A DNA stretch of 64,000 bases from an uncultured Spirochaetia bacterium (GCA_964586675.1 CAZPHQ010000001.1:127385-191384), one strand, 5' to 3'; shown: positions 3,704 through 25,596, numbered from the stretch's first letter. The notes: generated by a model from the sequence alone, not told the origin. Numbers and translations: made by a program.

Positions 3704-3733
3704 CTGGCGGAAATCGTAGCTTAGGCGATCCCC

Positions 3734-5837: not shown

Positions 5838-5936
5838 AGTAGTCTCCTTTTCGCTTCCGGCTCATCGCCGGATATTTTTTCGGAAGCCCCGGCTGTATCA
5901 GAAGAGAGCTTCCAGTAGAGCGGATCTCCTTTTTTG

Positions 5937-6806
5937 CTATGAAGCGCAGTCAACTACTAAAGGCGATTCGTCGCGTACGCTCCATTCGGCGCAGCTCCCG
6001 TCCTCGTTAACCTCGTTGCAGGAGCAAAAGCAGCTGTTGAGCTCGGGCACTGCGCCGTCCTGAAGTAAACAGGATAACATGGCCGGGGTCCCGGCGGAGG
6101 ATCCGACCGGCACATTTTCCTGGATGCCGATAAAGCTGGCGGGGTTCGATGTCTGGCACTGGGCGTCCGTCAATCTGGCCGCGTCGCACTTAAGACACGC
6201 ATTCGGGTCGCAGCCCGCCGCGCTGTCATAAGGACCGCCTATCTGGTGCCCGCCCGGACTCGTATCCGAATTTTCGCAGTTCGTGGTTATCGGGCACGAG
6301 CACATAAGCTCTTTCTTGCCCAGCTTCTCGAACCCCGGGAAGTTCCTGCCCTGGGTGCTGGTGAAGCAGAGCCCGCCGTCGCACTGCGCGTAAGAGCCGG
6401 ACGCAGCCGCAACGCCGCCGTACTTGCCCTTGTTGAGCTCTCCCGGGCAGGTATAGAGGGCATAGTCGCCTTCCGGATACACGCTTCTCTTGGGAACGCT
6501 GTATGTGCTCACCCTGTAGCCGTTTCCTCTCCCGTCCTGGTTCACAGTGCACACGTTCTCGCCGTCGCTGAAATCGAAGGGAAGGCTTATGCTGTCGCCC
6601 CTCAGGAGATCGCATTCGCAATAGGCCACCTGGTTCATGGTAAGGCATGTCGCGTTGGCGCAGAGCGCGTATTGCTGATCCTTCAAGATCAAAAAATCTC
6701 CGGCCGGCTCGCACTTGTCGGGATTCGCCGCCGACGCATCTCCCGCGCCCGCGAATAGGGGCATCAATAAACCAGCCAGTATAAAGAGAATATTCCTAAG
6801 CCTCAT
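5937..6806 (-). CDS. cysteine-rich secreted protein of unknown function
   Basis: ORF 5937..6857 trimmed to MRLRNILFILAGLLMPLFAGAGDASA (AAGGAG RBS upstream). I count 22 Cys in the mature part, including CEC, CSC and CFCSC clusters. Confidence 0.7.
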   Translation of the reverse strand: MRLRNILFILAGLLMPLFAGAGDASAANPDKCEPAGDFLILKDQQYALCANATCLTMNQVAYCECDLLRGDSISLPFDFSDGENVCTVNQDGRGNGYRVSTYSVPKRSVYPEGDYALYTCPGELNKGKYGGVAAASGSYAQCDGGLCFTSTQGRNFPGFEKLGKKELMCSCPITTNCENSDTSPGGHQIGGPYDSAAGCDPNACLKCDAARLTDAQCQTSNPASFIGIQENVPVGSSAGTPAMLSCLLQDGAVPELNSCFCSCNEVNEDGSCAEWSVRDESPLVVDCAS

Positions 6807-7006
6807 CTTTCCATCCGCTCCTTCATTTAAAGTTTTAAGATCCAGTCGGAAATCCATTTGTCCGTTAAATATATGCCCATTTCAGAAATTCTGTGTTTTA
6901 TTTTCACGCTCGGCCCAGGGGCCCGGTTGAAGTCGCAAACCGGCATTTTGGTTTGGATCGATATGGCGCTAAATTTAGCAGATAAACTCATATATAGGGA
7001 GCTACT

Positions 7007-8644: not shown

Positions 8645-8808
8645 ATTCGACTCAACTTGCTCTTAATCATTCAAGAATTTTGAGGCGAGCAGCCAGAAAC
8701 TCAAAAATCCGTGTATTTGCAGGCATCTACGCGCTTGCTATTAGTATCTGTATTGATTATAGTTGAATTTCACTAAGTAAAATCACTCGACCTGGGGAGG
8801 TATTAGAT

Positions 8809-9162
8809 ATGAGGTCACGTACTTATTTAGTCCCGCTTTTTGTCCTTTTTTCCCTGTTTGTATTTTCACTAGTCAATGCGAGCCTGGCTGGCGATAAAAC
8901 GACGGTAACAATCGAGGGCAATGTCGTTTGCCTTCTGCCCGATTATGAAAAGGGCACTGTTAACCCGGTCATCGCAACCGGCCCTTGCACCAACGACCCT
9001 CCGCATGAACACATCCTGGTCAGCAAGGATAATAAAGTGTATTACCTCCAGGGCCTGCAGGAAGGGTTGATGAAGGTAGCGCTGAATCCCAACCACACCG
9101 ATGTCAAGATCACGGGTCAAGCAGAGCAAACAGCCGGCGGTTGGATTCTATACGTAGAGTAA
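8809..9162 (+). CDS. small secreted hypothetical protein
   Basis: GGGGAGG RBS and signal peptide MRSRTYLVPLFVLFSLFVFSLVNASLA. 117 aa. Confidence 0.6.
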   Translation: MRSRTYLVPLFVLFSLFVFSLVNASLAGDKTTVTIEGNVVCLLPDYEKGTVNPVIATGPCTNDPPHEHILVSKDNKVYYLQGLQEGLMKVALNPNHTDVKITGQAEQTAGGWILYVE

Positions 9163-9238
9163 TTCGTTGGTAATTTTCGAGCCCAAGTACCGGAGTCCCC
9201 GGGCAGGATAGCCCGGGGCTTCGGTTCAAGTATTTCGG

Positions 9239-9718
9239 TCAGTAAGGCGTTCCGTCTTTGTGAACGAATTTCCATTTGCCCTCTACTAGCAGCGCCTGGA
9301 GATCGTCGTCAGGATAGCATGCCTCGTCTCCCGGAGTTCTATCCCCGATTTCAAGGTATAAGACATCCTCAGAGCTTTCGTTTATAAGGTGATGGCCGTT
9401 TCCGTCGCCCGCTTTGAATCCGGCGCACATTCCCGGAGAGAGGACTGTACGGCCCTCGTTGGTGTGCAGCGTCGGGTTTCCGCCGAGGATGTAAATAAAC
9501 TCGTCCTGCTTCGAATGGCAGTGCCGTATGGACGACATCGCCCCAGGCTTCAGCCTGGTGAGATTGACCCCGAAATTGGCAAGCCCGAAAAGGTCGCCCA
9601 GCGGACGCTTCTCCCTGCCCGCCATCAGTGAAGCGAACGGCTCGGGGTAATTTGACGGCTTTGTCCGGAGCGGCGCATCTTGCGCGTGGATTGCTACTAG
9701 CTTCTTTTCCTGTGGCAT
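9239..9718 (-). CDS. cupin domain-containing protein
   Basis: ORF 9239..9760 trimmed to MPQEKK (GGAGGA RBS 5 nt upstream). Cupin motifs are HCHSKQDEFIYILGG and GNGHHLIN. Confidence 0.8.
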   Translation of the reverse strand: MPQEKKLVAIHAQDAPLRTKPSNYPEPFASLMAGREKRPLGDLFGLANFGVNLTRLKPGAMSSIRHCHSKQDEFIYILGGNPTLHTNEGRTVLSPGMCAGFKAGDGNGHHLINESSEDVLYLEIGDRTPGDEACYPDDDLQALLVEGKWKFVHKDGTPY

Positions 9719-10084
9719 ACGATCCTCCGCGGCTGTCACTTCAAAATCTACTTCGATCAAGAGAGCTCGATGGGGTTATTTTGCCGTTGGTAAGGTGGGG
9801 TACCTTAGTAGACGTATTCCGAACCAAATTATTAGAAGTAGAAAGCAGTTCTCTTGTAACCAGTATTAAGCAAATATTTCAGTCTAATAATCCAGTACCT
9901 AATTCTTGCTTATCATGTATTGATAAATAGAAACTCAATTTCTACCTTCTGTGTAATCTTCAATTTCCAAATTCCTCATTATCTTTGGTCCCAGATAGAG
10001 GTGAGTCCAGATCAAAGATATGGCGGATTTAACGGCTTTGAATGTGCAGACTTTGATAAAACAGGCCGTCCCACAACAGTGTAA

Positions 10085-11281: not shown

Positions 11282-11571
11282 GGCTGATGTCTCTAAGCTC
11301 TACAAACCCTATAGTGCTAAAAATTATTAACTTATAAGAAATGTTGCGTAACAGCCTTTGGGGAAATAATTAATTGTAAAGATGTTCCAAATGCCACTAT
11401 AAATATATACTAGATAAAAGGGTAATCATTAATCCGAGTTGTATACTGCGGGATGACGGAATGAAGGAGCACATATCGATACAAGGACATGACGATTATA
11501 AACTCGATTGCCGGCTAATGGCGTACACAATTTAATCCAGATTCGTTCAGCTGCATGATATGGAGGTATGT

Positions 11572-12438
11572 ATGGATTCTGAACTTTTCAAAGAGTCGGT
11601 AGAGTACGAACGGCTGACTCAGGCTGTCTATCAAGCCATTATTCGCAAGGAAGGCCAGAACATCGAAGTTGTTCATAACCAAGATGTCATTGGAAAATCA
11701 GGCGTTGCTCACCAAGTCGACGTGCTTTGGCGCTTCAAGTTAGCTGGCGTCACACATCTCGTCCTCATCGAGTGTAAGAACTATGCCAGCACTCTGACGC
11801 TTGAGAAAGTCAGGAATTTTTTTGCGGTGCTGCATGACATCGCTAATTGTTCAGGTTTGATGGTGACCCGCACAGGATATCAATACGGCGTGGAGCAGTT
11901 TGCAAAGTTTTACGGTATTGGTCTTAAGTTGCTTCGCCATCCCGAACCTGAGGATTGGATAGGAAGAATCAAGAATATACATATCAACTTTCATATCCGA
12001 GAAGTGGTCAGCAGTGAGGATCGACCGATTCGTGTAAACGTCAAATTTGAAGCAAAGGATGCAGATCAAGAAAACTACCTGAAGGAGCTCCAATCCAAAG
12101 GGCGTCTCTCGATGCCTTCTGCTCCAGACATGGTGTTCTGGTCTGGCGACAGAAAAAATGTGACGGAAGAGTTGCGCTGGTGGCTTCCGAAGCAACTCGA
12201 AGTGGCTGGGAAAGCCGATGGTGGTCCCTATATACAAGTGATTCCTCTTAGCGACCACTATCTTCTTTTCAATCCTGGCGACGGTGACGAAGTATTCGTC
12301 AAAGTTAATCAACTTGAAGTCGAATACTTCGTCGAGACTATCGACAACACAGATATGGTGGTTCTGGGTGAAGATCTTATCGAAGCAATTCTCAAAGACT
12401 TTAATTCCGGCGACGTGGAATACACAAAGTTGAAATAG
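11572..12438 (+). CDS. restriction endonuclease-fold (Mrr_cat-like, PD-(D/E)xK) protein with an unassigned C-terminal domain
   Basis: ORF 11560..12438 trimmed to the ATG at 11572 (GGAGG 7 nt upstream). The core HQVDVLW...LVLIECKNY...GLMVTRTGYQYGVEQFA matches the D...ExK Mrr catalytic pattern. The C-terminal 160 aa or so are unassigned. Confidence 0.7.
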   Translation: MDSELFKESVEYERLTQAVYQAIIRKEGQNIEVVHNQDVIGKSGVAHQVDVLWRFKLAGVTHLVLIECKNYASTLTLEKVRNFFAVLHDIANCSGLMVTRTGYQYGVEQFAKFYGIGLKLLRHPEPEDWIGRIKNIHINFHIREVVSSEDRPIRVNVKFEAKDADQENYLKELQSKGRLSMPSAPDMVFWSGDRKNVTEELRWWLPKQLEVAGKADGGPYIQVIPLSDHYLLFNPGDGDEVFVKVNQLEVEYFVETIDNTDMVVLGEDLIEAILKDFNSGDVEYTKLK

Positions 12439-12495: not shown

Positions 12496-14079
12496 CTACG
12501 CCGGATGTTCCTGAAATAAATTCTGTTGCAATAACGGATATCCGGTCGTCAGGCCGATTTCTTTTGCAAGGTCATCCATCGGCACGTTAGCCAGCTCCTT
12601 CGGTTCAAGTTTGTGAAGCCCGCCGCCATAAACACGACCTTCATCAAGAAGCTGTTGGGCATCTATATTGTTAAGATATGACCAGACTTTTTTCATCAGG
12701 GAAGGGTCTTTTGCCAAAGCGTTCGATAAAGCTTTTTTAGGATACATCATCAGGTAAACATTGGTGGCAATGGCGTTTGATTCATTCAATATAAACCGGA
12801 AAGGTCTGCCATTCTTTTTATCGCTGCGGCCGATATAGGTGCAGATAAAGGGAGCGGGGGCGCGGTCTTCCTGCCTGTGCCAAGGCTTGCGCGAACGACA
12901 TAGATAGCGCTCGGATACAGACGGAATGCCCGTTTCCAGGTACTTCCAGAGCGCGGGGTAGAGTTTTTTAATCTCATGTTCGCCAAGGCGGCAGTCCAGT
13001 ATAAAAAGCTGTTTATCTAAAACGGGATTGCCGTGCCGGTCGCCAATGACATGATCTGTTGCAAGGTATCGCGGGCTTGGCAGGATAGGCTGGAAGAATT
13101 TCAAAGGCAGTTTCAGCTCTTCAATTTTCTCGCGGCTGAAAATAAAAAATTTGTTATCACCTGTCGCCAGGCCGCGCTTGATCTGAAAAAGATCACCAAG
13201 CGTTATGGCCGCTTTCTCGCTGCGAATATCCGCAAGCGGGAATCGAATCCATTTCGGCTCATACTGCAAGATGTGCGTGGAAACAAATTTACGCAGCTTA
13301 GGATTATTGACCGTGCCGCCGAAGGTGAATTCAACGACGTTGTCTTTTGACGGCATTTCATTCCGGAAGAAAACGACAGCGGATGACACCAGGGCGTCAT
13401 CAAACTGGACATCGTTGGGATCAAAACGGTGTATGCGTAGCAGATTGACCTTTGTAAGCAGGTAACGTTTTACGGCTGTACCGTAATTCACATTCATGAA
13501 CTCGCTCGGCACCAACCAAGCGGCAACGCCGCTTGCGGCCATCCAGGGGTGCGATAACGCCATAAAATAGCAATACAGCCCGGACAGGCCGGTGATTTTT
13601 ATATCGGCGGATTTCTGGGCGGCATGTTGAAGCCGCAATTTTTCACCGTTCACGATATGGTGATGACGTACATAAGGGGGATTGCATACAAGAAGGTTGA
13701 AGCGCCCGTATTCATTCTTCGGCGGGATAGCCGCCGTGAAGTCCTCCAAATGTATTTTCAATGGTGAATTGGCCCATAGGGAACGCGCGGGACCGGCATA
13801 ATGAGGGTCTATCTCATAACCTTCGGCGGCCGATATTCTGCCGGGCGGCAGGACGCTTTGTAATGCCGAATAAAAGGAGCCCGTTCCGAAGGCGGGATCG
13901 AAAAAACGGACGGGTGAGCCGGAAGGCAACAAGCTTTGTGCATAGCCAACAATTTCCCTTGCAAGCTCCGTCGGCGTTGCAAACTGGCCGAGAATGTTGC
14001 GCTCTTCCTGCGTCTTGACGGCGTCAAGCTCGCTTTGAAGCGTTAATCTGCAGTCTTCCTGTGCGTAATTTTCTTTCAT
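12496..14079 (-). CDS. N6-adenine DNA methyltransferase, Eco57I-family (type II R-M methylase)
   Basis: AdoMet motif FFDPAFGTGSF, followed by the catalytic LLVCNPPYVRHHH (NPPY). There is a large C-terminal target-recognition region. The start lies 3 nt after the stop of the upstream nuclease gene. Confidence 0.9.
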   Translation of the reverse strand: MKENYAQEDCRLTLQSELDAVKTQEERNILGQFATPTELAREIVGYAQSLLPSGSPVRFFDPAFGTGSFYSALQSVLPPGRISAAEGYEIDPHYAGPARSLWANSPLKIHLEDFTAAIPPKNEYGRFNLLVCNPPYVRHHHIVNGEKLRLQHAAQKSADIKITGLSGLYCYFMALSHPWMAASGVAAWLVPSEFMNVNYGTAVKRYLLTKVNLLRIHRFDPNDVQFDDALVSSAVVFFRNEMPSKDNVVEFTFGGTVNNPKLRKFVSTHILQYEPKWIRFPLADIRSEKAAITLGDLFQIKRGLATGDNKFFIFSREKIEELKLPLKFFQPILPSPRYLATDHVIGDRHGNPVLDKQLFILDCRLGEHEIKKLYPALWKYLETGIPSVSERYLCRSRKPWHRQEDRAPAPFICTYIGRSDKKNGRPFRFILNESNAIATNVYLMMYPKKALSNALAKDPSLMKKVWSYLNNIDAQQLLDEGRVYGGGLHKLEPKELANVPMDDLAKEIGLTTGYPLLQQNLFQEHPA

Positions 14080-14082
14080 CGT

Positions 14083-15054
14083 TTACAATCCAAAACTGGC
14101 AAGGTCATCGATCCGGTGTTCCCAAACCCAGTCGATCCCTTCCGCCGCTTCATATCCTAAATAACCACTGTCAAAATATCCGCATAAAAAAAGATTGAAC
14201 CGGACCCTGTCGCCGTAGGTGCTGTGGAGCTGCGCCATCTTTACGGCTTCTTCCTTGCGGCGTTTGTTAACATTAGTAAAGTCGCCGGCTGATTTTGCCT
14301 CGATAAACACGGGAAAATCGCCTTCTATAGCCGTCTTAGGCATGATCGCTGCGTCGATGGGAATATTGATCTGACCAACACCGCCTTCAAGCTTTACAGG
14401 CACATTCATCCGGAAACTGAATGATCCGGGAGGCATATTTTCAAATGTCATGCCGTCGCCGGAAACAACATGTCGGTAATCGCGGGCTTCAAGCCATGCC
14501 TTGATTGCCGATAACTGCCTCTTTTCCTGGGCGTTGCGGATGATCGGATTGGCCTCGGCCCCGCATAAACGATCAGCTATGATGGTTGCGGCCCGGTGGA
14601 TTTCAGCTTCGGTAGGCGGTTCCATCCGTCCCCGCCAGACAAAAATATCGGGATCGGCCATTTTCTCTATAATGGCCCCTATTTTACTCAATTCCTCGTC
14701 CAGCCGGGTTTTACTCATGCGAGGCGGTATCTTTTTATCTCTATCCATTGTTTTGACAAAGCTTTTTGATACCTTGGCAAGACCGATGAGGCGATCCACT
14801 GCCAGGGGTGGACAGGTGGACATGCGCAGGGTCGGAAGGACTTCCGGATGCTGCCTTAAAATCTCCGGACGTATGTCGGTGAGGTTTCCAGTGGATTTTA
14901 GAGTGTCTTCAACATCTTTTGTTGTCTGGATGCGAGTTTTTCTGAAGGCATCAGGCGCAAATTTCATGAACCAGTCATTGTACATATCAACCGACTGGAT
15001 AATATCGGCCTTCCACTGATGCGGTTTATCTAGGTTTACGCCCATATCCGGCAA
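14083..15054 (-). CDS. type II restriction endonuclease, XamI-like (PD-(D/E)xK)
   Basis: NIPIDAAI...FPVFIEAKSAGDFTNVNKRRKEEA gives a D...EAK catalytic pattern, and the sequence resembles my recollection of the XamI family. It is tightly coupled to the methylase. The start is ambiguous (TTG at 15054 or ATG at 15045). Confidence 0.65.
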   Translation of the reverse strand: MPDMGVNLDKPHQWKADIIQSVDMYNDWFMKFAPDAFRKTRIQTTKDVEDTLKSTGNLTDIRPEILRQHPEVLPTLRMSTCPPLAVDRLIGLAKVSKSFVKTMDRDKKIPPRMSKTRLDEELSKIGAIIEKMADPDIFVWRGRMEPPTEAEIHRAATIIADRLCGAEANPIIRNAQEKRQLSAIKAWLEARDYRHVVSGDGMTFENMPPGSFSFRMNVPVKLEGGVGQINIPIDAAIMPKTAIEGDFPVFIEAKSAGDFTNVNKRRKEEAVKMAQLHSTYGDRVRFNLFLCGYFDSGYLGYEAAEGIDWVWEHRIDDLASFGL

Positions 15055-15152: not shown

Positions 15153-16187
15153 TCAGCCTAATTCCCGTAATCTGTTGCGAAGCGCATCGGCCAGTTTCCG
15201 GACGAGGGCTAGCATCTGCCGGGCGTCATTTTCAGTCACGACAATCCGTTGCCCGATGCGATAGCTGCCATCGCGACTGCGGTCAATATAAAGCTGATCT
15301 ACGATGCCTTCGGTGTGTTCCAGTAAATGACGCCTTTGGAAAAGAACATTCAACCTGTCCAGCTCCAGCGGCGTCAGCCAGTCATCATAGCCTTGTCCGA
15401 TGGCGCTGCGCCATAATTCGCTACCTTGTTGCAGCTTCTGAAAAGCATTGCGTGGAGGCGGTGGGTTATCCGGCATCTTTATATAGAGCTGTCCGGCAAG
15501 TCGCTGGAATGCAGAAATGCAATCGCTGAAACAACTTTCGATCAGGGACCAGGAGGTATTTTCGGCTTCGTCCTCCAGACCGGCAGCTTCAAGGGCGGAT
15601 CGGATTGTGTTGATATTATGTAGCTTGCCTTCGGCCTTGTTTAATGAAACGTCAAAGGTACGCTCGACGGAATTATGCCCGCAGGCCGGGCAGAAGTAAG
15701 CGCAGCCGATAACTGCGAACCGGGCCGAACATTCTTCGCATTGTATTTCTTGTTCCATGGCATCTCGTGCCCTAAGGGGTACGATGACTGGGTTTGACGG
15801 TCGCCTATTTGTAATGGAGAGCGAGAGTTTGATAAATGAATTGCGGGGCTGTCTCCTATTAAATTCCTCCGCCCCCATACTTAAGCCACTGTGGATAGCT
15901 CTATGAACCTTCGTAGTCATATAGTCCCTTGCCTGGCGTCTTGCTTCTTCAAGCTGTTCGGTTGTCCACCAGTGGTCGGCCGGTGCTTCTTCACGGCAGC
16001 GGGGGCAGTACACAGCTTCATTTTTGAAAATATTTGTCCAGTCCTCTTTTTTCACTTTGAAAACGTATCGGCACTCCTCTCGCGGGCATTCCCTGTCAGT
16101 AAAACCCTTTTCGTCAGGCGTGAGGGGAAAACCGACGTTTATTGGTTCTTCCAGTTTTTTTAGCTCTTTTATAACGTCTTCAAACAT
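15153..16187 (-). CDS. double zinc-ribbon protein with a C-terminal HEPN-like (Rx4H) helical domain
   Basis: CPREEC...CPRC (aa 34-64) and CEEC...CPAC (aa 150-169). The C-terminal four-helix region carries FQRRHLLEHTEG (R286-x4-H291, nt 15315-15332). It is on the same strand as the R-M operon and 98 nt upstream of it. Confidence 0.7.
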   Translation of the reverse strand: MFEDVIKELKKLEEPINVGFPLTPDEKGFTDRECPREECRYVFKVKKEDWTNIFKNEAVYCPRCREEAPADHWWTTEQLEEARRQARDYMTTKVHRAIHSGLSMGAEEFNRRQPRNSFIKLSLSITNRRPSNPVIVPLRARDAMEQEIQCEECSARFAVIGCAYFCPACGHNSVERTFDVSLNKAEGKLHNINTIRSALEAAGLEDEAENTSWSLIESCFSDCISAFQRLAGQLYIKMPDNPPPPRNAFQKLQQGSELWRSAIGQGYDDWLTPLELDRLNVLFQRRHLLEHTEGIVDQLYIDRSRDGSYRIGQRIVVTENDARQMLALVRKLADALRNRLRELG

Positions 16188-17437
16188 ATTTTTTACTCTG
16201 TAGAATTATATTTTACTTGGATAATTGTAAAAGTTGAATAGCGCAGTCTGTGTGGGGAGGGCTTTACCAAGGGGAAATCCAACACTACGGCCGTCATTTT
16301 GGGGCATGGGGGACGCCTACCCTTCCCTGCCGGTTTTGAGGTCAGGTCGGTGGCGTTTTCGCGGAGAATGCGAAGGTTCTTTTCCGTTTTTTGCTGCCTT
16401 GACAGTTTTTCCTTTGGGAAAGGTCTTGTGATGTCGGCCATACACTCATGTAACTCCGTGATTATCTGTATGGTGCATTCTTGCCGGCCGCGTTTTTCCG
16501 TGCGGATGAGGCATAGATACTTGCGGTGCAGGGAGAGCCGCTCGCGAGCCTCGATCATATCCAGGGCTGCCGCTTTTCGCTGGAGAAGCTTCTGTAGAAG
16601 ATCTGGCGAGCGGCACAATCTACATTCTGCGAAGCAAGTCCGATCATCCGTCTGTCGCGGCGAACCGCGATATTCTACATAAGATCGGCGTCACCGGGGG
16701 GAGATCGAAACTCGCTTCGTCAATGCAAGCTGGACCCGACTTTCCTGATGGCCGAAGTGGAAGTCATCGCCACTTATGATCGAACACGCGGTGGATTAAG
16801 CTTTCAAGCTTGACTCTTTGAGCGCAGTTGAACATTGAAATCAAGGATCGATTCGGCAACCCGGTTAGACTCCGCGAATGGTTCCTCGTCCCTTTTTTCT
16901 CGTCCTCTTTTCATAGTCAACGAAGTGGTCGAAAGCATAAAGGACGGAACAATCACTCAATACGTTTACGATCCGAACGAAGCGCGTCTTGTGAATGTGG
17001 CTCCTGAAGCATGAGGGCCAGGCCCATGCATCCGGTCCGCGATACGGAAGACCCAAAAAAACTTCCTTAAGCTGCACCCGGCCGAGGCGGACAAGATTAG
17101 TTGCAGTCAAAACACTTTGAAGCCATCGGCGTGACATTTGCGAGCGCAATGACCACAGACAGCGTCTGAGCAAGAGAACAGATCGGATTCTTCGATTTAA
17201 TTAGCTGCTATTTCCTCAACCAAATGCCTGCCATCTCCAACAGCTAAAAAGTGATGATCACTCGGCAGTCTTTCATATCCGTTTCAAACGCTGAAAGGGG
17301 CAGCGCGCAATAGCATACACATAGCGAGATTGCAAGGTTGGAATATAGTCAAGATTAAATATAAGCGTTAATTAGTTAGTCTCTTGTGATTTTATATTTG
17401 AGTTGGTCCTATTATACTACTATCCAGAAATCCAATA

Positions 17438-20400
17438 ATGAATCTTGATGCTCTTAAAAAATATAATCTATCCGAAATAGCAAGTGCTGGCCCTCGCTAT
17501 ACACCCGGTCAGGACAAAAACGCGCCTAATCTTCATATTCAAGGGCTCGAAGATGCGCTTGATGCGCTAAGCCTATCAAAAGACTTTAGAAAACGCCTCC
17601 GGGGCTTAGCAAAACTGATTGCAAAAGCTCGTGAGGAGTCGACACACCAGGTAGATCAGTTGTTCAATGGCAAAAAACGATCGCCTCTTTATCTGAAGAA
17701 CCTCATAGAGAAGTTATCTGAGGCGAATCCGCAAGATGCAAAAAGTTTAATCAAGGAAATAAAGGTTGTAATTGAAACAATCAATAAGACCATTAGAAAA
17801 CGAGTGGATAAACTCTTTGAGTTGGAACGTAAGGAACGTGTGAAAAAAAGAGAACAAACTGGCGGCCATGATTATGAACGTAGTCGACTAATGCGTTTTG
17901 AAGAAAATATAGGAGATGTCGTTTCATATTTTTATTCAGCTCCCGATCTAATTTTAAATAATTGCGCTCTCCTGCTTGGCGAATGGGGGACGGGAAAAAC
18001 GCATTCGTTGTGCGATTTCGTAAAGAGACTAACCGAAAACGGCCATTATTGTGTTTTTTCAATAGCGCAGAATTTTCCTCTAAACACGGACCCTATTGAA
18101 GCAATATGCCAAAGAAGTAAGCTCTCAAAAAATATGTCAGAGTTGCTCTCTCACATGGAAAAATTTGGGCAGGAAAATAAGTGCCGCTCTCTTCTAATTG
18201 TGGATGGAATAAACGAAGGTGATAGAGAAGAGTGGAAAAGTGCGGTAGATAAGCTGTATAAAAGCATCAGCAGTATACAACATGTCGGTCTTGTTCTAAG
18301 CTGCCGTACGCCATTTCAGAAACTTATTTTTAACAAGCGCATACTGCGCCGTTATAAAGCTTTTTTTCATCAGGGTTTTAGCGAAATAGAGTTTGAAGCA
18401 CAGGAAGAGTTTTTTAAGTATTACAAAATTCCCTTTCCTGAAGTTCCGCTCTTGTCAGATGAATTTTCTAGGCCACTTACCCTTAAACTGATTTGTAAAG
18501 CTTTAGAAAATCTTACTACATCGAAAAAAAAGAGCACTTTCACGGGCATCGCTTCAGGTCAGAAGGGTATGACCTATATTCTGGAGAAATACATTCAGGA
18601 TTTAGGAGAACCCATCGAAAAAAACTTTAAGTTACCAGGAAAATTCTGCTGGACGTTTCTAAAAGGAACAACCAAGACCAAGGACGGATCAGAGGATGGT
18701 ATAGCGGTCAGGATGGCAAAAGATCAAAAGGAGGTTCTTTCCTATGAAGAAGCATTAGAAATCATTCTGAATGTAACAAAATGGGAATCAAAGGATAAAG
18801 CTAAAAAGTTTTTAAAGGCTATCGTTCACTCCGGCATCTTGTTTGAACATTTTATCTGGATAGATAGTGGATACGTGGATGCCATAAAGCTGCCATATCA
18901 AAAATTTAGCGACCATATTATCGCTCGACACCTTCTAGGTCGATACCTAAGCACCAAGTCTCCAACTGCAATTAAGAGAAGTTTTAATGCAAACAGGCCA
19001 TTAGGAAAGATTTTTGATATCAGTAAGCACGGTCATGAATATGAAATACCCAACTGGGCTGAAGCTCTTATGATCGAATTTCCTGAAAGAATTAAGAAAT
19101 TGAATTCGGAAAACAAGGAACTTATATATTATCTCCCAAAAAGCAAAAGACTCATTACTCCTTCGCTTGATCCATTCCTAAATAGCCTCTTATGGCGTCC
19201 GCCTTCGTCTTTTTGTCGGGGAACAGATGCAATAGTAGATCAGTTGCTTACTATAGGAACGGCAGAAACAAAACATCGTGTCCTCGATGTTCTATTGGCC
19301 CTCGCTGTAAAGAAAAATCATCCATATGGCGCCAAAAGGCTGGATGCATTCCTTTATAAGAAAGCGATGCCGGAACGCGATCTTTTCTGGTCTGAATTTC
19401 TTAGAAAAAGTTACGCCGCAGATACTCCTTATAAGGTAATTTCGTGGTCGATAACAGCTGCAAATCAAGGTATTTCAAAAAGTGTAGCGGAAAATTGCAT
19501 CATCATTCTTATGTGGTTTTTAACCAGTGTTAGCAAACCACAGAGAGATAAGGCAACAGAAGCGATTATAAATCTTGGATTTCTTTATCCAGATCTGGTC
19601 TTCGAAAAAACACTATATAGCATAACAATTAATGATCCTTACGTTTCGGAGAGAATGTTGAGCGCTTCATACGGCATTGCAATGAATAAATGGGCTGAAA
19701 ACCGAAAGAAGTTTAGGGAGCCATTTATGAATTTTGCTAAGGATATTGTGAAAGAAATGTTTCTTCCTGGTGGCAAATGGGGGACTCACAACGCAATATC
19801 TAGAGATTGCGCGCTAGGCTGTATAGAAATCGCGCGTTTGATGGATAAAAATTGTATAGCCAAACAATATCTGCAATATCTAAAACCCCCGTTTTCCCAT
19901 ATTAAATTATCGTTCAAAAAACCTAGAGATATAACAAAAAAGAAAATCGAGGCGGTCGAGTTTGCGATTCATATGGATTTTGAAAACTATACCATAGGAA
20001 GATTGATTCCTGGTCGCGGAAATTATCAATATAATCACCAAGGTTATCAGGCTGTTTTAAAGCAGATAAAGGGACGGATTTATGATCTTGGGTATAGGTC
20101 TGACCAATTTAAAAAAATCGACGAAGAGATTGCACGATATCAAGGGCCGGATACATCGGATCGTCCCTCAAAAAGAGAGAGATACGGTAAAAAGTATTCA
20201 TGGATAGCTTACTACGAGATGTATGGTTATCGTGAAGCTAATGGATTACTTAAAGAAAATAGAAATGACCACAGAATATCGGATATTACTTTCGATCCTA
20301 GTTTGCCCAAAGCCCCAAAGCCTTGTTCACTGAAGCTGCCAAATTTGTTTAGAAACAAGTTTAAAGGCACTTCACATTGGTTAGAATACGGTCTAACTCC

Positions 20401-21262
20401 TGACTACGGGAATCTCCTGGTTCGCGATATCATAAGAGGGGAGCATGGACCTTGGGTATTGCTCGATGGCTATATTCATCAAGCAAACAGTACCGATAAA
20501 CGGGAAATCTTTAGCTTCTTACGGGGACTGTTTATCGAGGAAAAGAATATAGAAGACTTTAAAAAGAAGTTCTTTACTAGACCCTATCCAGGAAATTCTT
20601 CTATCGCCGATCCCCAGGAAGATTTCTACACGTTTGCTGGTGAAATACCGTGGTCGAAGCAACATGCCCCTTACCTTAGATATAAAAACGGACAGGCAAA
20701 ACGACATTTAGAGGATGTTTTTGGGGAGAGTGAGTTCGTTCCCTATAAAAGAAAACCACCTAAAAATGCTCCTTCTGTAGCAATTGAGACACCAGAAGGA
20801 CCTATCTCTGTTGTTCTAGGTAAAAAGTCCGTCACGGGAAAATGGAAAAGAACGCCTGGTGTGCAAGTTGAAATCCCTGTCTATGGTTTCAGTTGGGAAA
20901 GCTATCACAGTATAGTAAACGATTACAGCGGTTTTGATGTTCCAGCACCAGCTATTTCAAATTATCTAGGTCTTAACTATAGAAATCAATCAGTTGAGTT
21001 TTTCGACAGAAATGGAAAAAGAGCCACCATATTTCTGAGATTCCCTATCACAGAGATCTATCACAGCACTCATTTATTATATTTACGCAAAGACCTATTG
21101 GAGAAATATTTAGCACACAAGGGGCAAACCATTGTATGGGCAATCTGGGGAGAAAGAAGCATGCATTATAAGGTTTTCGAAAGGGGATATGTTAATGAAC
21201 AACAATTAGATGCTATATATCAAGAATATAAACACATTCATCGGACTTTTTGCAGGTATTAA
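17438..21262 (+). CDS. 1274-aa STAND/NACHT-like (or KAP-like) P-loop NTPase with an unassigned C-terminal domain
   Basis: Walker A LLLGEWGTGKTH (nt 17978-18001) and Walker B SLLIVDGINEGD (nt 18191-18217; the hhhhDGhxE form is typical of NACHT). Architecture is an N-terminal coiled coil of about 170 aa, a long helical middle region, and about 370 C-terminal aa with no motif I can assign. Confidence 0.85.
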   Translation: MNLDALKKYNLSEIASAGPRYTPGQDKNAPNLHIQGLEDALDALSLSKDFRKRLRGLAKLIAKAREESTHQVDQLFNGKKRSPLYLKNLIEKLSEANPQDAKSLIKEIKVVIETINKTIRKRVDKLFELERKERVKKREQTGGHDYERSRLMRFEENIGDVVSYFYSAPDLILNNCALLLGEWGTGKTHSLCDFVKRLTENGHYCVFSIAQNFPLNTDPIEAICQRSKLSKNMSELLSHMEKFGQENKCRSLLIVDGINEGDREEWKSAVDKLYKSISSIQHVGLVLSCRTPFQKLIFNKRILRRYKAFFHQGFSEIEFEAQEEFFKYYKIPFPEVPLLSDEFSRPLTLKLICKALENLTTSKKKSTFTGIASGQKGMTYILEKYIQDLGEPIEKNFKLPGKFCWTFLKGTTKTKDGSEDGIAVRMAKDQKEVLSYEEALEIILNVTKWESKDKAKKFLKAIVHSGILFEHFIWIDSGYVDAIKLPYQKFSDHIIARHLLGRYLSTKSPTAIKRSFNANRPLGKIFDISKHGHEYEIPNWAEALMIEFPERIKKLNSENKELIYYLPKSKRLITPSLDPFLNSLLWRPPSSFCRGTDAIVDQLLTIGTAETKHRVLDVLLALAVKKNHPYGAKRLDAFLYKKAMPERDLFWSEFLRKSYAADTPYKVISWSITAANQGISKSVAENCIIILMWFLTSVSKPQRDKATEAIINLGFLYPDLVFEKTLYSITINDPYVSERMLSASYGIAMNKWAENRKKFREPFMNFAKDIVKEMFLPGGKWGTHNAISRDCALGCIEIARLMDKNCIAKQYLQYLKPPFSHIKLSFKKPRDITKKKIEAVEFAIHMDFENYTIGRLIPGRGNYQYNHQGYQAVLKQIKGRIYDLGYRSDQFKKIDEEIARYQGPDTSDRPSKRERYGKKYSWIAYYEMYGYREANGLLKENRNDHRISDITFDPSLPKAPKPCSLKLPNLFRNKFKGTSHWLEYGLTPDYGNLLVRDIIRGEHGPWVLLDGYIHQANSTDKREIFSFLRGLFIEEKNIEDFKKKFFTRPYPGNSSIADPQEDFYTFAGEIPWSKQHAPYLRYKNGQAKRHLEDVFGESEFVPYKRKPPKNAPSVAIETPEGPISVVLGKKSVTGKWKRTPGVQVEIPVYGFSWESYHSIVNDYSGFDVPAPAISNYLGLNYRNQSVEFFDRNGKRATIFLRFPITEIYHSTHLLYLRKDLLEKYLAHKGQTIVWAIWGERSMHYKVFERGYVNEQQLDAIYQEYKHIHRTFCRY

Positions 21263-21435
21263 TACTTTTATCCCGTGTTTTTATTTATAATCATTTCAAA
21301 TGAAGGCTGTTCGAAGCAAAATTAGTATATAGCCAGAAATCAATTAAAAGCCAGCCAGTTAAGTAATGTGTGCCGAAGATTGGAGGTTAAGTTATTAAAA
21401 AATCATCTGACACCAGTAAATCAACATTTAGTCTG

Positions 21436-22401
21436 ATGATGGAGGATCAGATTAAGAATCTTCTTAAATCGCTACCCAGCAGTCCCGGTTACGACAGGAT
21501 TCAAGAAATCATCAAAGAATACGAAAGAACGAATAGGATATTAGCTGACTTGATATACAGTCCGTGGGAGATGGACCGTTTGATATCGGAAGCAGAGCAA
21601 CTTTCGCAATTTACAGAATTCAACCCGATAATTGATGAAGAACACGCAATGCTGAGTCAGCAACTTGTGGCAACACTGGCACCACAGTCGGCTGCCGATG
21701 CCATAGCGAGTCTAGGCTCTCCCATGAATGAGGGATTAATAAGGCTCGTAAGTCAATGTTTTAGTATTCCGACATCGGGCATTTGTAGCTCAATGGATGA
21801 AACAACAAACCTGGAATTTAACTTAACTGAATTAAAACCATTTGATATATCCAGACACGAATATTTACTGAATACTGAAGCCACACGAACCATAGATCTG
21901 GGAATTGTAAAGCTTAAAACTATTCAACAGACCCAGATGCAAGTTCAGATGAAGGTAACGGATATTCAACAAGATGTAGTTGAGTTAAAGGAGATTGTAA
22001 TAAAAGACGTGCAAAAGAAAGATGAAATGCTCGGAGAACTGCTTGATTATTTCCGTAATGGGGGCTCGAATGCAGTAAAAATCAGAAAGCTCAACTATAA
22101 CAAAAAATCAGCCGAGCTTATAATTAATGACACAGTTATACAAATCAGAACCGATACGAATCAACACTACCTATGTAAATTATTATTTTCCAGCAAAACA
22201 AGCATTAAGAGAGTTTGGGAGATCTACGATATCGTGGAAGCATTCGGCGAAGACACCACATGCCTTAAAGACTGGCGCAACATTATATACAACACTGTCA
22301 GGCATCTGAATGAGAAGATACAGTCTCAAACAGGGTTAGAAAAATTCATATTGTTCGACAATAAAACAATATTAATTAATCCCAACTACTTAGACCTCTA
22401 G
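21436..22401 (+). CDS. hypothetical protein with a C-terminal OmpR/PhoB-like winged-helix pattern
   Basis: 321 aa. The C-terminus SAELIINDTVIQIRTDTNQHYLCKLLFSS...VWEIYDIVEAFGED...WRNIIYNTVRHLNEKIQ...FILFDNKTILINPNY follows the Trans_reg_C spacing. There is a central Q-rich coiled coil. Confidence 0.7.
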   Translation: MMEDQIKNLLKSLPSSPGYDRIQEIIKEYERTNRILADLIYSPWEMDRLISEAEQLSQFTEFNPIIDEEHAMLSQQLVATLAPQSAADAIASLGSPMNEGLIRLVSQCFSIPTSGICSSMDETTNLEFNLTELKPFDISRHEYLLNTEATRTIDLGIVKLKTIQQTQMQVQMKVTDIQQDVVELKEIVIKDVQKKDEMLGELLDYFRNGGSNAVKIRKLNYNKKSAELIINDTVIQIRTDTNQHYLCKLLFSSKTSIKRVWEIYDIVEAFGEDTTCLKDWRNIIYNTVRHLNEKIQSQTGLEKFILFDNKTILINPNYLDL

Positions 22402-22405
22402 TAAA

Positions 22406-22429
22406 TAGTTGCGCAGATATGCGCAACTA
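22406..22429. repeat. perfect 10-bp inverted repeat TAGTTGCGCA-gata-TGCGCAACTA (terminator-like hairpin or candidate origin element)
   Basis: Read directly from the sequence. It starts 5 nt after the stop of the 321-aa gene and lies 204 nt upstream of the Rep-like gene. No T-run follows. Confidence 0.5.
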
Positions 22430-22450
22430 TCCTTCCATTAGTCTCAGAGC

Positions 22451-22636
22451 ATGCAATCTGAGGCCAGAAGTTTAAAAAACATAGAGATCAAGAAGAATCT
22501 GAATAGAGATAGCGCAGATTCCAGATTGCGGATGTTCTTTGAAATTCTCATGAAAATCGACAAGCGTGAAAATATCGTGCGTGGCGCACGCGAATCGAAA
22601 GATAAAGAGCTCAAAATAAATTGTGAAAACCAATGA
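22451..22636 (+). CDS. possible small basic ORF overlapping the rep start (ATGA)
   Basis: 61-aa ORF whose TGA overlaps the ATG of the Rep-like gene. No recognisable domain. It may instead be non-coding origin or promoter DNA. Confidence 0.25.
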   Translation: MQSEARSLKNIEIKKNLNRDSADSRLRMFFEILMKIDKRENIVRGARESKDKELKINCENQ

Positions 22637-23745
22637 TCGACACAATAACTATTCGACTCGCTGCACCTCAATTCAGAATAACCGACCACTATAAATTCAG
22701 TCCGGACACCCATAACTTTTTCTATCCGCCTTATGCAAAAATGGGTGGCAGGGCATATTTGGATTCATACCAAAACCCAACGAGGTCGGAGCTTAAAGAA
22801 GGAGAATACAAACCACAACTTACAGTGCGTAAGAGATGGCAGGATTCAGAGCCTTTGATATTTCTCTACGTACAATTTTCAGCACCAAAAATCCTCTTTG
22901 GCAATAACTTTGATGAACTTAAGGACACCGATTTGGATGAAGTTATAAATGTATTAAATTCAAGACTGTCAGATATGGGAGTTATTACAAGCAAAACCGA
23001 ATTACTAAAAGCAAAAGTTGTAAAGATTCATTACTCCAAGAACATAGTATTGCCGGATTATATTATTCCGAGCATGCTGATCGGCGAAGTCAGAAAAGTG
23101 GACTTCAATCTTCATAGAGAACTCACTGAAAGAGATTACAGAAATTCAGGGCAGAGTTTACGATTCCACGTTAAAGATTTCGAGTTAATACTTTATGACA
23201 AAAAGAAGGACATGCAGAAATCTATTGATAAAGACAACACTTTGCAACTCGAACTCTTTGAAAAAATACAAAGAAAGAGACCTTTTGAAGTTTTACGTAT
23301 AGAGATAAGACTTAATAGCACTAACAGGATCAAAGATGAAGTGGGAATACCTAAAAAAGACCATACACTGGAAAGATTATTCGATACTCAAATTAGCATT
23401 AAGGTACTTCAAAGATATTGGACGCAACTAAATAAAGGCTATAAAAGTCTAAATTACGATATTCAGGATAAAGAGAAATTTCTGGCCAGCTTTTTGGTAA
23501 ACAATCCCGAGGCCCGAATATCAAATGCTTTTACGACTTATGCTATGTTGGAATTTTTACAAGATATAGGCACTAGCAAGCTTAGAAACCTAATAGATAC
23601 CAAGTTTTCCAAGCGGACCTGGTTCAATTTGAAAGCCAATCTGAACAAGTATAAACTTAATGGAGAATTGCCGGATTATTTCAATGCAATATCAGATTCC
23701 TTAAAGAAATACACCCCCTTAAATTTGAAAGACCATCTTATCTAA
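22633..23745 (+). CDS. rolling-circle replication initiator-like protein (Rep_trans / phage gene II-X family-like)
   Basis: The MIDTITIRL N-terminus, FSAPKILFGNNFDEL, FELILYDKKKD (YDK active-site-Tyr-like motif) and LRIEIRLN follow the pattern I recall for Rep_trans/CRI-type initiators. Confidence 0.6.
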   Translation: MIDTITIRLAAPQFRITDHYKFSPDTHNFFYPPYAKMGGRAYLDSYQNPTRSELKEGEYKPQLTVRKRWQDSEPLIFLYVQFSAPKILFGNNFDELKDTDLDEVINVLNSRLSDMGVITSKTELLKAKVVKIHYSKNIVLPDYIIPSMLIGEVRKVDFNLHRELTERDYRNSGQSLRFHVKDFELILYDKKKDMQKSIDKDNTLQLELFEKIQRKRPFEVLRIEIRLNSTNRIKDEVGIPKKDHTLERLFDTQISIKVLQRYWTQLNKGYKSLNYDIQDKEKFLASFLVNNPEARISNAFTTYAMLEFLQDIGTSKLRNLIDTKFSKRTWFNLKANLNKYKLNGELPDYFNAISDSLKKYTPLNLKDHLI

Positions 23746-23785
23746 CTTGAATTCATAGAATATTCAGCTTAAACTGTTTCAATAT

Positions 23786-23998
23786 ATGGAAAGTATGTTA
23801 ATAGACTTGCCCCGACAAATAAAGCGGATTCGTGAGGAAAAAGAAATTACGCAAAAAGAACTTGCGAAAATTTCAGGTGTAAGCTATTCAACCTTAACCA
23901 AGCTTGAAACAGGCGTGATCAAAAATCCCTCCTTTGAAGTGGTATTGAGAATTATTAAGGCACTGGAAATCGATTTATCCGATCTAATGACGGAATAA
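23786..23998 (+). CDS. XRE-family helix-turn-helix transcriptional regulator
   Basis: ITQKELAKISGVSYSTLTKLETGVIKNPSFEVVLRIIKAL is a canonical HTH_3/Cro-C1 pattern. 70 aa. Confidence 0.85.
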   Translation: MESMLIDLPRQIKRIREEKEITQKELAKISGVSYSTLTKLETGVIKNPSFEVVLRIIKALEIDLSDLMTE

Positions 23999-24010
23999 GA
24001 ATATCCAACA

Positions 24011-25468
24011 ATGAAAGCAATATTATTAGCCAGGGTTTCAACAGAAGAACAAAATACTGAGAGTCAGTTAATTAAGCTTAAAGAATACGCAGACGAGGAG
24101 GGATTCGAATATACAAAAGAAGACATTTTTGATTTCTATGAATCCGCTTACAAAAGCAATAGAGAACACTTCCAAGAAGTGATCGCGTATTTAAACGAGC
24201 AGAAGGACAAAGTAGCTCTATGTTGTGATAAGGTAGACAGATTATTAAGAAACTTCTTGCACTTGAGGCCTATTCAGGAATTACTTGAGCAAGACAGAAT
24301 CGAGTTACATTTTCCATCTGACAATTTAGTGTTGAATAATAATTCTCAAGCTACTGAAAAATTCAAATTCAACCTTGGGGCTATGTTAGCCCAATATTAT
24401 TCGGACGCCATCAGCGACAACGTGAGGCGTTCGATATACAAACGAATAAAATCAGGGCAAATACTTGGAAAAGCACCATACGGATATAGAAATGCAACAC
24501 TCGATGACGATACAAAAACTGTTGAGACAAATCCATTCGAGGCCTCTGTCGTACTCAAGATTTTTGAGTGGTATGCAACAGGATCATATGCGCTAAGCGA
24601 GATTAAAGAGAAAATCCATAAAGAATTCGGTGTGAAACTAGGCAAATCAACCATTGCAAAAATACTCGAAAATAAATTCTACATTGGGATTGCCGAGTAT
24701 AAAAAACAGGGAACGGAATATCATCACATTTACCCAACTATAGTTCCAAGTAATATCTTTTACACTGCGCAGGAAGTCAAAGCAGGTAGAAATCCCTTTT
24801 TAGGCTCAGGTATTAAATACTCCGGAAAAGAATTTTTTTACAGAGGACTCATTAATTGTTCCACATGCGGGTACTCCATATCTCCAGAAGAACATAGAAG
24901 CAAAAAATATTATTGCTGCACTGAATATGGAGGCAAACATGGAGCACACTATGTAAACGAGGATGTACTAACAAACGAATTTGCTGAAGCTTTTAGACGA
25001 ATTACCATATCAGAGGCTACCGCTCAGAAAATAATTCATGAAGTACATCAATTAAACGAAACGAACCTTTATATGTCTCAGGAGCTCATAGATAATTTCA
25101 GAAAGGAAAAAGACAAAATACGCAAAAGGATATCAAAACTATATGATGCATATTTTGACGAAAGTATTACTAAGGAAATGTATGAAGGAAAATTGAATCA
25201 ATATAATACAGAATTGAAAAGAATTGAGGACAGGCTGAAAAACGTAGAAAAGGTCGATAAAGATTTTTATGCTACCGCCGAATATATAATTCAGCTTGCT
25301 AAACATAGCAGCGCGTTATTCAGGTGTTCAGAATATGAAGAAAGGAGACTGCTAATTAACACAGTACTTCTGAACGTTAAATGGAATGGTCTAAACCTTT
25401 GTTATGATTACAAAGAACCATTCAATTTGCTAGCAAATATGCATGAGAGTACAGGGTGGGGTGAGTGA
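24011..25468 (+). CDS. large serine recombinase (integrase)
   Basis: N-terminal resolvase motif ILLARVSTEEQ with the catalytic Ser, GKAPYGYRN in the recombinase domain, the zinc ribbon CSTCGYSISPEEHRSKKYYCC, and a C-terminal coiled coil. The last 12 nt overlap tRNA-His. Confidence 0.9.
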   Translation: MKAILLARVSTEEQNTESQLIKLKEYADEEGFEYTKEDIFDFYESAYKSNREHFQEVIAYLNEQKDKVALCCDKVDRLLRNFLHLRPIQELLEQDRIELHFPSDNLVLNNNSQATEKFKFNLGAMLAQYYSDAISDNVRRSIYKRIKSGQILGKAPYGYRNATLDDDTKTVETNPFEASVVLKIFEWYATGSYALSEIKEKIHKEFGVKLGKSTIAKILENKFYIGIAEYKKQGTEYHHIYPTIVPSNIFYTAQEVKAGRNPFLGSGIKYSGKEFFYRGLINCSTCGYSISPEEHRSKKYYCCTEYGGKHGAHYVNEDVLTNEFAEAFRRITISEATAQKIIHEVHQLNETNLYMSQELIDNFRKEKDKIRKRISKLYDAYFDESITKEMYEGKLNQYNTELKRIEDRLKNVEKVDKDFYATAEYIIQLAKHSSALFRCSEYEERRLLINTVLLNVKWNGLNLCYDYKEPFNLLANMHESTGWGE

Positions 25469-25535
25469 CGGGATTTGAACCCGCGACCTCTGGGGCCACA
25501 ACCCAGTGCTCTAACCGGTCTGAGCTACACCCACC
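25457..25535 (-). tRNA. tRNA-His: tRNA-His (anticodon GTG) with encoded G-1 and CCA
   Basis: Manual cloverleaf: G-1 plus acceptor GTGGGTG/CACTCAC, D arm GCTC/GAGC, anticodon arm CTGGG-TTGTGGC-CCCAG, T arm GCGGG-TTCAAAT-CCCGT, discriminator C pairing with G-1, and CCA. 79 nt. Confidence 0.9.
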
Positions 25536-25596
25536 ATTGATTTCAGAAAATTTAAGAGAACAGAAATAGTACCATATATATAATATGTGACAACTG

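Follow-up and report, generated by a model that had tools for sequence, protein, structure and literature searches.

Within a 64,000-nucleotide (nt) stretch of DNA from an uncultured Spirochaetia bacterium (GCA_964586675.1 CAZPHQ010000001.1:127385-191384), hereafter the window, a complete gene on the plus strand (17438..21262, ATG start) encodes a protein of 1274 amino acids (aa) plus stop that very probably belongs to the Avs2 family of STAND NTPases and lacks the effector. Residues 1-173 (17438..17956) comprise a conserved N-terminal helix and an AGPRYTPG..APNL motif (aa 17-32), followed by the Avs2 helical extension, and are not an effector. The nucleotide-binding domain (NBD) occupies aa 174-330 (17957..18427) and contains the Walker A motif GEWGTGKTH (aa 181-189; GEWGTGKT, aa 181-188, at nt 17978-18001) with the P-loop lysine K187, the Walker B motif LLIVDGINEGD (aa 252-262; LLIVDG, aa 252-257, at nt 18191-18208) and the sensor-1 residue R290. 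It is followed by helical domain 1 (HD1) and the winged-helix domain (WHD) of the STAND module at aa 331-505 (18428..18952), whose approximate limits were drawn from AlphaFold2 secondary structure and the EcAvs2 alignment and which include the clade-invariant pair D492-H493. A sensor arm of helical repeats resembling tetratricopeptide repeats (TPR) extends from aa 506 to about aa 949 (18953..20284) and ends in an invariant RYGKKYSWIAY helix (aa 915-925); after an approximate boundary at about aa 949/950 comes a beta-rich C-terminal sensor domain (CTD; aa ~950-1274, 20285..21259), recognised by fold match and CTD identity. No transmembrane-like segment was found in the protein, the top Kyte-Doolittle 19-aa window being 1.28. 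The open reading frame (ORF) coordinates, both Walker motifs, the long helical region and the lack of a transmembrane insert had been given in a preliminary description of the window, and all were reproduced.

Assignment to Avs2 came from both profiles and a solved structure. All six PADLOC Avs2 hidden Markov models (HMMs) matched, the best being PDLC02164 (E=1.5e-164), in which aa 4-823 aligned to profile positions 174-955 of 1504. EcAvs2 (PDB 9o4e) matched at E=6e-54, with aa 4-822 on residues 168-949, and the protein is collinear with EcAvs2 from just past the effector to the C-terminus, through helical extension, NBD, HD1, WHD, TPR and CTD. The canonical order in Avs2 is an N-terminal effector, a helical extension or insertion, the STAND ATPase (NBD, HD1, WHD), TPR and a beta-rich CTD, and the terminase is gripped between TPR, CTD and helical extension in a flat C4 tetramer (PMC13601566; 10.64898/2026.08.25.746987). 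Pfam gave sub-threshold AAA_22 and NACHT matches only (aa 175-291), NACHT (PF05729) scoring 21.9 bits against a gathering cutoff of 26.7 at aa 178-291, and the NCBIfam model for EruA, a NACHT antiphage protein, matched at E=0.0075; the P-loop is of STAND type, and strict NACHT membership is not established by the Pfam score. The preliminary description had compared the P-loop with that of KAP NTPases such as PifA and had seen no obvious match of the architecture to a described type, and a KAP-type or otherwise new NTPase family unrelated to Avs/bNACHT was accordingly considered. The GxWGxGKT form of the P-loop does resemble that of KAP proteins, and the sub-threshold Pfam matches would suit a new family, but there was no KAP_NTPase match in Pfam at E<=1, a transmembrane insert is lacking, and an Avs2 assignment that is very strong, collinear and drawn from HMMs as well as a solved structure leaves this suggestion barely credible.

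The AlphaFold2 models, one of aa 1-830 (predicted local distance difference test score, pLDDT, 89.3) and one of aa 772-1274 (pLDDT 85.9, predicted template-modelling score 0.79), place the start of a P-loop alpha/beta fold at aa 176; helical repeats then continue until about aa 940, and the chain is beta-rich from about aa 995 onwards. Residues 1-173 were modelled as all-helical with pLDDT of about 80-94. In Foldseek searches the aa 1-830 model matched only Cdc6/Orc, Avs4, MalT and a TPR-STAND protein. No effector fold or domain was found in the protein by Pfam, PADLOC or NCBIfam, or by fold searches of both models, which bears out the earlier statement that it contains no nuclease, TIR, SIR2 or protease motif. 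The N-terminus was accounted for by alignment to EcAvs2: residue 4 aligns to EcAvs2 residue 168, directly past the effector, and aa 1-173 lie on about 168-345. Since residue 4 corresponds to the first EcAvs2 position after the effector, the N-terminal "coiled coil" of the preliminary description is the Avs2 helical extension, and this end of the protein can be assigned after all. In EcAvs2 the helical extension forms part of the terminase-binding interface (PMC13601566).

The absence of the effector extends well beyond this one protein. A word-indexed search for homologs gave 516 proteins at E<=1e-10, of which the best 120 were mostly full-length matches of about 1235-1345 aa with 36-87% identity, and the Walker A motif fell at residue 160-220 in 117 of 119 of the best homologs. 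When the best homologs were combined with representatives from a phmmer search with the CTD, 187 full-length relatives were obtained. A short N-terminus was found in 169 of them, with the P-loop GxWGTGKT in 158 of the 169; the other 18 were long (Walker A at residue 275-410), all carried GxAGxGK[ST], and they sit in a single neighbour-joining subtree of 21 leaves. Across the fetched metagenome loci 64 of 87 matched ORFs were full-length and started within a few residues of residue 1, and an extra 125-190 aa at the N-terminus occurred only in distant relatives (<=31% identity) and one pair at 33%. Between the short and the effector-bearing forms identity over the core averages 23%. N-terminal truncation or a pseudogene was ruled out by the clade-wide short architecture, the invariant motifs and the ratio of non-synonymous to synonymous substitution (dN/dS), and the absence of the effector is a trait of a large coherent clade.

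Named source organisms of the relatives include Acidobacteriota, Binatia, Lysobacter, Rhodovibrionaceae, Micavibrio, Nitrosomonas and Candidatus Pacebacteria. In databases they are called "hypothetical protein" or "NACHT domain-containing protein", because they score under the NCBIfam Avs2 cutoff. The one apparently long protein among the close homologs, P0051 (1608 aa), has a 266-aa N-terminal extension of Arg-rich low-complexity sequence on a high-GC contig. It was rejected as a long homolog, its start having been called too far upstream; the sequence MNLDDLGRVN...AGARYTP begins at the true start, M267. Such a mis-called start means that length alone is not reliable evidence of an effector domain in this family.

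What the clade retains is highly conserved. G181, G184, G186, K187, T188, D256 and R290 are invariant in all 44 clade members that were compared, as is D492-H493. Relative to an ortholog of 87% identity, dN/dS was 0.16 overall and 0.09-0.21 per domain, and every domain is under purifying selection. By all sequence criteria the ATP switch and the sensor are intact.

Similarity of the CTD to that of EcAvs2 was only weakly detectable by sequence. HMMER and phmmer aligned aa 874-935 to EcAvs2 1102-1159 (ERYGKKYSWIAYYE versus ERIGKKYQWIAYYE), and phmmer aligned aa 1143-1242 to EcAvs2 1351-1447. When the aa 772-1274 model was searched against the PDB significance was reached only by the two chains of 8dgc, a complex of Avs3 with terminase (E=8e-7 at a probability of 1.0; some 509 columns aligned; TM-score 0.36; identity 10-11%), and no enzyme fold came close; 9o4e was absent from the fold matches, the last release of the fold library (April 2026) predating the EcAvs2 paper. 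With aa 830-1274 as the query, an exhaustive phmmer search yielded 974 representatives of 50%-identity clusters, and the 376 that reached E<=1e-30 include effector-bearing relatives. One of the latter, P0186, has a CTD 38% identical to the present one over about 400 aa; PDLC02162 covers the whole protein (aa 2-1389 against profile positions 3-1345 of 1379), and PDLC02164 matches it from profile position 4. The preliminary description had regarded the last ~370 aa, from ERYGKKYSWIAYYEMYGYRE (aa 914-933, with 361 aa remaining to the C-terminus), as unassigned, and the matches to EcAvs2, 8dgc and P0186 now identify them as the Avs2 C-terminal sensor and not a new effector. With this the view that the architecture has no obvious match among the described types also falls, given the PADLOC and 9o4e matches. 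A profile match to a described family with a known effector had been named there as counting against the proposal: the family is Avs2, and the effector is absent. The label of single-protein sensor-effector has likewise to be replaced, since without an effector module the protein is a sensor plus a switch.

Two glutamates that contact the terminase in EcAvs2, E1362 and E1444 (PMC13601566), are largely retained in the clade. E1239 (EcAvs2 E1444) was kept in 44/44 members, E1154 (EcAvs2 E1362) in 39/44 and W1153 (EcAvs2 W1361) in 43/44, while W1266, E1462 and D981 of EcAvs2 have no mappable position. Between short and long forms identity is 30-42% in the sensor, about 20% in the NBD, 15-20% over NBD-WHD and 12% in the helical extension. 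The sensor is therefore the best-conserved part between the two, which fits a shared class of ligand. By analogy with the solved complexes that ligand is rather likely to be a large terminase or a terminase-like ATPase, and the protein is probably a single-gene large-terminase sensor.

Comparison with characterised systems places the protein among the Avs2 receptors and at the same time sets it apart from each of them. EcAvs2 of E. coli (AVAST type 2; 9o4e; Evans et al. 2026, PMC13601566) is collinear from residue 168 and has in common both the RYGKKY-WIAYYE helix and the two contact glutamates, found here as E1154 and E1239; it differs in its N-terminal effector of about 167 aa, in a P-loop that reads GKAGIGKS where GEWGTGKT is found here, and in about 100 aa of late TPR, including D981, that are unmatched here, as well as in bridging-ATP residues that are not demonstrably conserved. 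Avs2 proteins with an Mrr nuclease (the KpAvs2 type; Bechon et al. 2024, PMC11564622; represented here by P0186) share the family HMMs, the 38% CTD identity and nearly all invariant polar residues of the sensor. They have, however, an N-terminal nuclease-type module of about 150-200 aa, essential in KpAvs2, and match the HMMs from profile position 3-4, whereas the present protein starts at 174 and is 15-20% identical over NBD-WHD. Avs2-trypsin-MBL of Vibrio cholerae (10.64898/2026.08.25.746987) likewise has a helical insertion early in the STAND module, TPR and CTD, and its terminase sits between TPR and CTD in a flat C4 tetramer, but it carries a trypsin-like domain fused to its N-terminus, which cleaves another protein, an MBL nuclease; neither a protease domain nor a conserved partner gene is present here. 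SeAvs3 (8dgc, bound to PhiV-1 terminase), itself a terminase sensor and the sole significant structural match of the model covering the TPR end and CTD, is larger and has a Cap4-like nuclease effector, and the terminase nuclease domain that it also binds keeps its native fold. The closest functional precedent is bNACHT11 (10.1101/2024.12.17.629029), which is NLR-like and defends although it has no recognisable effector domain; it belongs to another NTPase clade, has SNaCT as its sensor and possesses a conserved N-terminal extension of about 45 aa (MDPIT) that causes plasmolysis.

A substitute for the missing effector was sought within the protein. When 19 short relatives were aligned with 14 long ones and segments of at least 12 columns were considered, none was short-specific, so that there is no clade-specific inserted domain; the long-specific segments were the N-terminal module and one 18-aa loop only. 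Scoring of 95 polar residues (near-)invariant in the short clade against the long forms showed that 18/19 in the CTD and 32/38 in the TPR are common to effector-bearing relatives, leaving one and six that are short-specific. A cryptic catalytic site in the CTD was rejected on that basis and for want of an enzyme fold match. A bNACHT11-like N-terminal mini-effector was also rejected: no conserved N-terminal peptide of the MDPIT/MEPIS kind was found in the 44 clade members, whose first residues differ both in sequence and in number (0-8 extra aa in most, with a few longer called starts). One helix face at the N-terminus is conserved (L6, N10, I14), and is also present in EcAvs2, downstream of the effector. 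Aligned aa 4 and Walker A are about 177 aa apart, much as in EcAvs2, which means that the N-terminus holds no extra module.

The only clade-specific feature found was in the switch. NBD-HD1-WHD holds 20 of the 30 apparently short-specific invariants, 14 of the 30 lying in HD1/WHD (aa 331-505), and they cluster at aa 183, 311-409 and 491-498 (nt about 17984-18931). In the long forms W183 of the P-loop is Ala without exception, and A/G-G-Y stands in place of S491-D492-H493. As the identity between short and long forms is only 15-20% here, misalignment may have made too many residues look clade-specific.

The gene stands alone, on integrative elements and in defence islands. In the window it lies in a block of 36-41% GC (about 17-25.5 kb) with flanks of 55-60% GC, and in the five close orthologs examined it keeps a GC content of 38-41%. 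It is intact and identical across seven contigs. Other clade members adjoin Abi_2 on a tyrosine-integrase element, lie between Type I restriction-modification (R-M)/GmrSD and type III CBASS, or are next to AbiEii or Type I HsdR. A scan of genome contigs with a single-protein query found six loci, and three loci were found in 2.9 million viral contigs. The earlier account of a stand-alone STAND NTPase in a mobile-element and defence-island setting was thus borne out both here and in relatives, as was the presence of R-M and nuclease genes in the island: upstream lie XamI, an Eco57I-like methylase and a Mrr_cat gene, and downstream a serine recombinase and tRNA-His.

No recurring partner gene emerged when 347 neighbour ORFs from 48 non-redundant loci were clustered, no family being immediately adjacent in more than two of the 48. 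The commonest was serine recombinase (8/48 loci, at variable distance and strand), followed by HsdM (four), HsdR (three) and XRE regulators (three). Individual neighbours were considered as partners and rejected. The downstream 321-aa ORF belongs to the element backbone, is parted from the gene by a Fic gene in the 87% ortholog and is absent elsewhere. The stand-alone Mrr_cat protein (11560-12438, plus strand) is unlike the Avs2 effector found in P0186, and the neighbour families of the other loci do not include it. The T5orf172 gene upstream is truncated in the window and intact beside the 87% ortholog.

Taken together the evidence leans, slightly, towards an Avs2-family antiviral STAND NTPase of an effector-less subclade that would sense terminase and act by capture. 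Late in infection the pocket formed by TPR and CTD, together with the helical extension, would bind the ATPase domain of a phage large terminase, and binding together with ATP would drive assembly of a flat tetramer, both steps being modelled on the solved Avs2 complexes. With no enzyme to activate, assembly would itself be the output: the terminase would be trapped in an ATP-locked complex with its active site occluded, packaging would fail and no progeny would be released. The EcAvs2 pocket buries 2833 A^2 over the active site of the terminase ATPase, and in the bound terminase the nuclease domain has partly lost its fold (PMC13601566). Capture is plausible because that pocket covers the active site and partly unfolds the nuclease domain, and because the terminase acts late, so that blocking packaging would then be enough to stop spread. 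As the output step capture takes the largest single share among the options and is still a tentative choice; that this mobile, ancient clade protects by ATP-driven oligomeric capture and inactivation of terminase is more doubtful again.

Several observations weigh against this explanation. Capture is countered mainly by the canonical Avs, in which binding alone is not sufficient: nuclease-dead KpAvs2 (K71A) loses defence (PMC11564622), and deletion or mutation of the effector domain abolishes toxicity in 13 Avs families. The bridging-ATP residues of EcAvs2 (T1128, R1130, R1132, D981 and E1364) are not demonstrably conserved. The first three lie opposite a variable loop (aa 899-913), part of which (aa 905-911) is the only stretch of very low confidence in the model, and E1364 aligns at an indel; none of these four is conserved at its aligned position. 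D981 falls within the ~100 aa of late TPR that have no aligned counterpart. The NCBIfam Avs2 equivalog NF041813 aligned to aa 14-833 from profile position 1 with 482 bits, below its cutoff of 1000 bits. The concentration of short-specific residues in NBD-HD1-WHD could point to a different output through the switch module. Finally, the gene has 39% GC in a host of about 56% and no obvious Shine-Dalgarno sequence, and stoichiometric capture needs substantial expression.

Among other explanations of the output, a sensor-only receptor whose oligomer activates an unlinked effector in trans, from the host or the element, or which co-assembles with an effector-bearing Avs paralog, is possible and rather doubtful. 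Sensor/helper NLR pairs and NAIP-NLRC4 offer a parallel. Canonical Avs need an effector for toxicity and defence, and Pfam, PADLOC, fold, insertion and residue analyses located no effector module anywhere in this protein; the clade-specific invariants on NBD-HD1-WHD could then be a docking surface. Separate proteins act in some Avs2 systems, namely the MBL nuclease of Avs2-trypsin-MBL (10.64898/2026.08.25.746987) and the accessory genes of the KpAvs2 operon (PMC11564622). An intact 402-aa gene of the T5orf172 nuclease family lies directly upstream of the 87% ortholog, and upstream of a 73% ortholog an ORF fragment at the contig edge clusters with T5orf172, but in the window only a truncated remnant of that gene persists beside an avs2-like gene that is intact and identical across the seven contigs. 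The Mrr_cat protein is unrelated to Avs2 effectors and does not recur near other loci, the neighbour analysis offers no family in its place, and the movement of the low-GC cassette among very different hosts argues for autonomy.

The clade-specific residues of the switch, W183 and D492-H493 among them, would also suit a cryptic built-in effector, in which a remodelled NTPase (for example by runaway NTP hydrolysis) or clustered N-terminal helices kill or arrest the cell once the protein oligomerises. bNACHT11 has no identifiable effector domain and kills via a short N-terminal peptide (10.1101/2024.12.17.629029), and Avs2 tetramers bring the N-termini of the ATPase domains together (PMC13601566). 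The variable extreme N-terminus without an MDPIT/MEPIS-like motif, a conserved helix that EcAvs2 also has, the unchanged distance from aa 4 to Walker A and the possible inflation of the residue count at such low NTPase-module identity nevertheless make this explanation unlikely. Less probable still is a role outside defence, either as a dominant-negative or decoy, which would poison the tetramers of effector-bearing Avs2 or titrate terminase to the mobile element's benefit, or as an inactive relic. The lack of the module that canonical Avs need and the location on mobile elements, with serine recombinases near 8/48 loci, would suit such a role. Against it, the dN/dS of 0.16, the invariant catalytic residues and a clade spanning several phyla rule out a relic, and a core identity averaging 23% to effector-bearing forms makes co-assembly as a decoy unlikely. 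The neighbours, moreover, are defence genes (Type I R-M, GmrSD, type III CBASS, Abi_2, AbiEii, XamI R-M and MmeI), and the gene is rare on viral contigs.

The literature consulted on Avs and other NLR-like proteins describes a tripartite logic of sensor, switch and effector in which removal of the effector abolishes function. The present clade keeps sensor and switch under strong purifying selection without an effector, a substitute module or a dedicated partner gene. If such proteins defend alone, they would represent either a non-suicidal output for an NLR-like receptor or a new form of trans-signalling, and if they do not, a widespread class of sensor-only receptors with partners elsewhere. 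Should capture prove true, an NLR-like receptor would be a direct stoichiometric inhibitor of a viral enzyme and not a trigger of suicide. The protein is an effector-less variant of the known Avs2 family and not a new type of system. PDLC02165, another of the PADLOC Avs2 profiles, places residue 4 at profile position 41, which suggests that the PADLOC dataset includes Avs2 seeds with a short N-terminus, and such sequences are probably already present in existing datasets, without characterisation. HMMs of the PADLOC type call the relatives Avs2 and give no sign of the missing effector. No mention of effector-less Avs/STAND proteins was found in the Avs/STAND literature searched, which included neither the founding Avs paper (Gao et al. 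2022) nor the supplementary tables to the STAND survey of 2026, so that an earlier mention is possible.

The element that carries the gene has a serine-recombinase backbone (21279..25580, plus strand) of 321-aa, 61-aa, 370-aa and HTH ORFs, which is context and not part of the system, and includes a large serine recombinase with Resolvase, Recombinase and Zn_ribbon_recom domains (24011-25468, plus strand). A tRNA-His gene on the minus strand (25457-25534), whose 3' end overlaps the last 12 nt of the recombinase ORF, marks the right end of the low-GC element, and homology to the element of the 87% ortholog extends as far as about 25580. Direct repeats of the att type that might derive from tRNA-His were looked for and not found, including on the left side of the element. 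Over 21279-25580 the backbone shares 94% DNA identity with the element of the 87% ortholog, the 321-, 61- and 370-aa ORFs (21436-23745, plus strand) being kept at that identity with different cargo; they had no significant match in Pfam, PADLOC, NCBIfam or PHROG. At the ortholog's locus L006 a Fic/DUF4172 gene (5920-7565) lies on the opposite strand exactly between the avs2-like gene and the 321-aa ORF, and this junction appears to be a point of cargo insertion in the element family. Upstream cargo in the same element comprises MmeI, a DEAD helicase and T5orf172.

In the window the upstream T5orf172/MUG113-family remnant (16569-17180) is truncated; it shares 78.6% identity with the intact 402-aa gene (loci L005-L007) over the 3' end of that gene and the spacer behind it. 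The AT-rich 243 bp that follow (17181-17423), just 5' of the start codon, have no counterpart upstream of the 87% ortholog. They contain a promoter-like site, TTTATA-16-TATACT (17391..17418, plus strand), known from a consensus scan only, in which such sites were fewer in the upstream region than in its shuffles. Further upstream, on the minus strand, a XamI-family endonuclease (E=1.5e-124) and an Eco57I-like N6 methylase form a complete-looking Type II R-M pair (12496-15054). Between these R-M genes and the avs2-like gene sits a 344-aa ORF (15153-16187, minus strand) that matches PADLOC PDC-M14A (E=4e-13, aa 18-171) and, weakly and over aa 144-187, PHROG families of Lar-like restriction-alleviation proteins. 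The left half of the island, which holds this R-M pair and the Mrr_cat gene, has about 48-50% GC and the right half 38%, which indicates that the island is probably composite. In a Nitrosomonas metagenome-assembled genome (L010), the gene's 74% ortholog is preceded by a pair resembling a toxin-antitoxin system (AbiEii/DUF6088) and by a separate STAND NTPase of 1162 aa that carries ankyrin repeats at its C-terminus (697-4185, 8244-9819), the latter being a second NLR-like gene of the same island.

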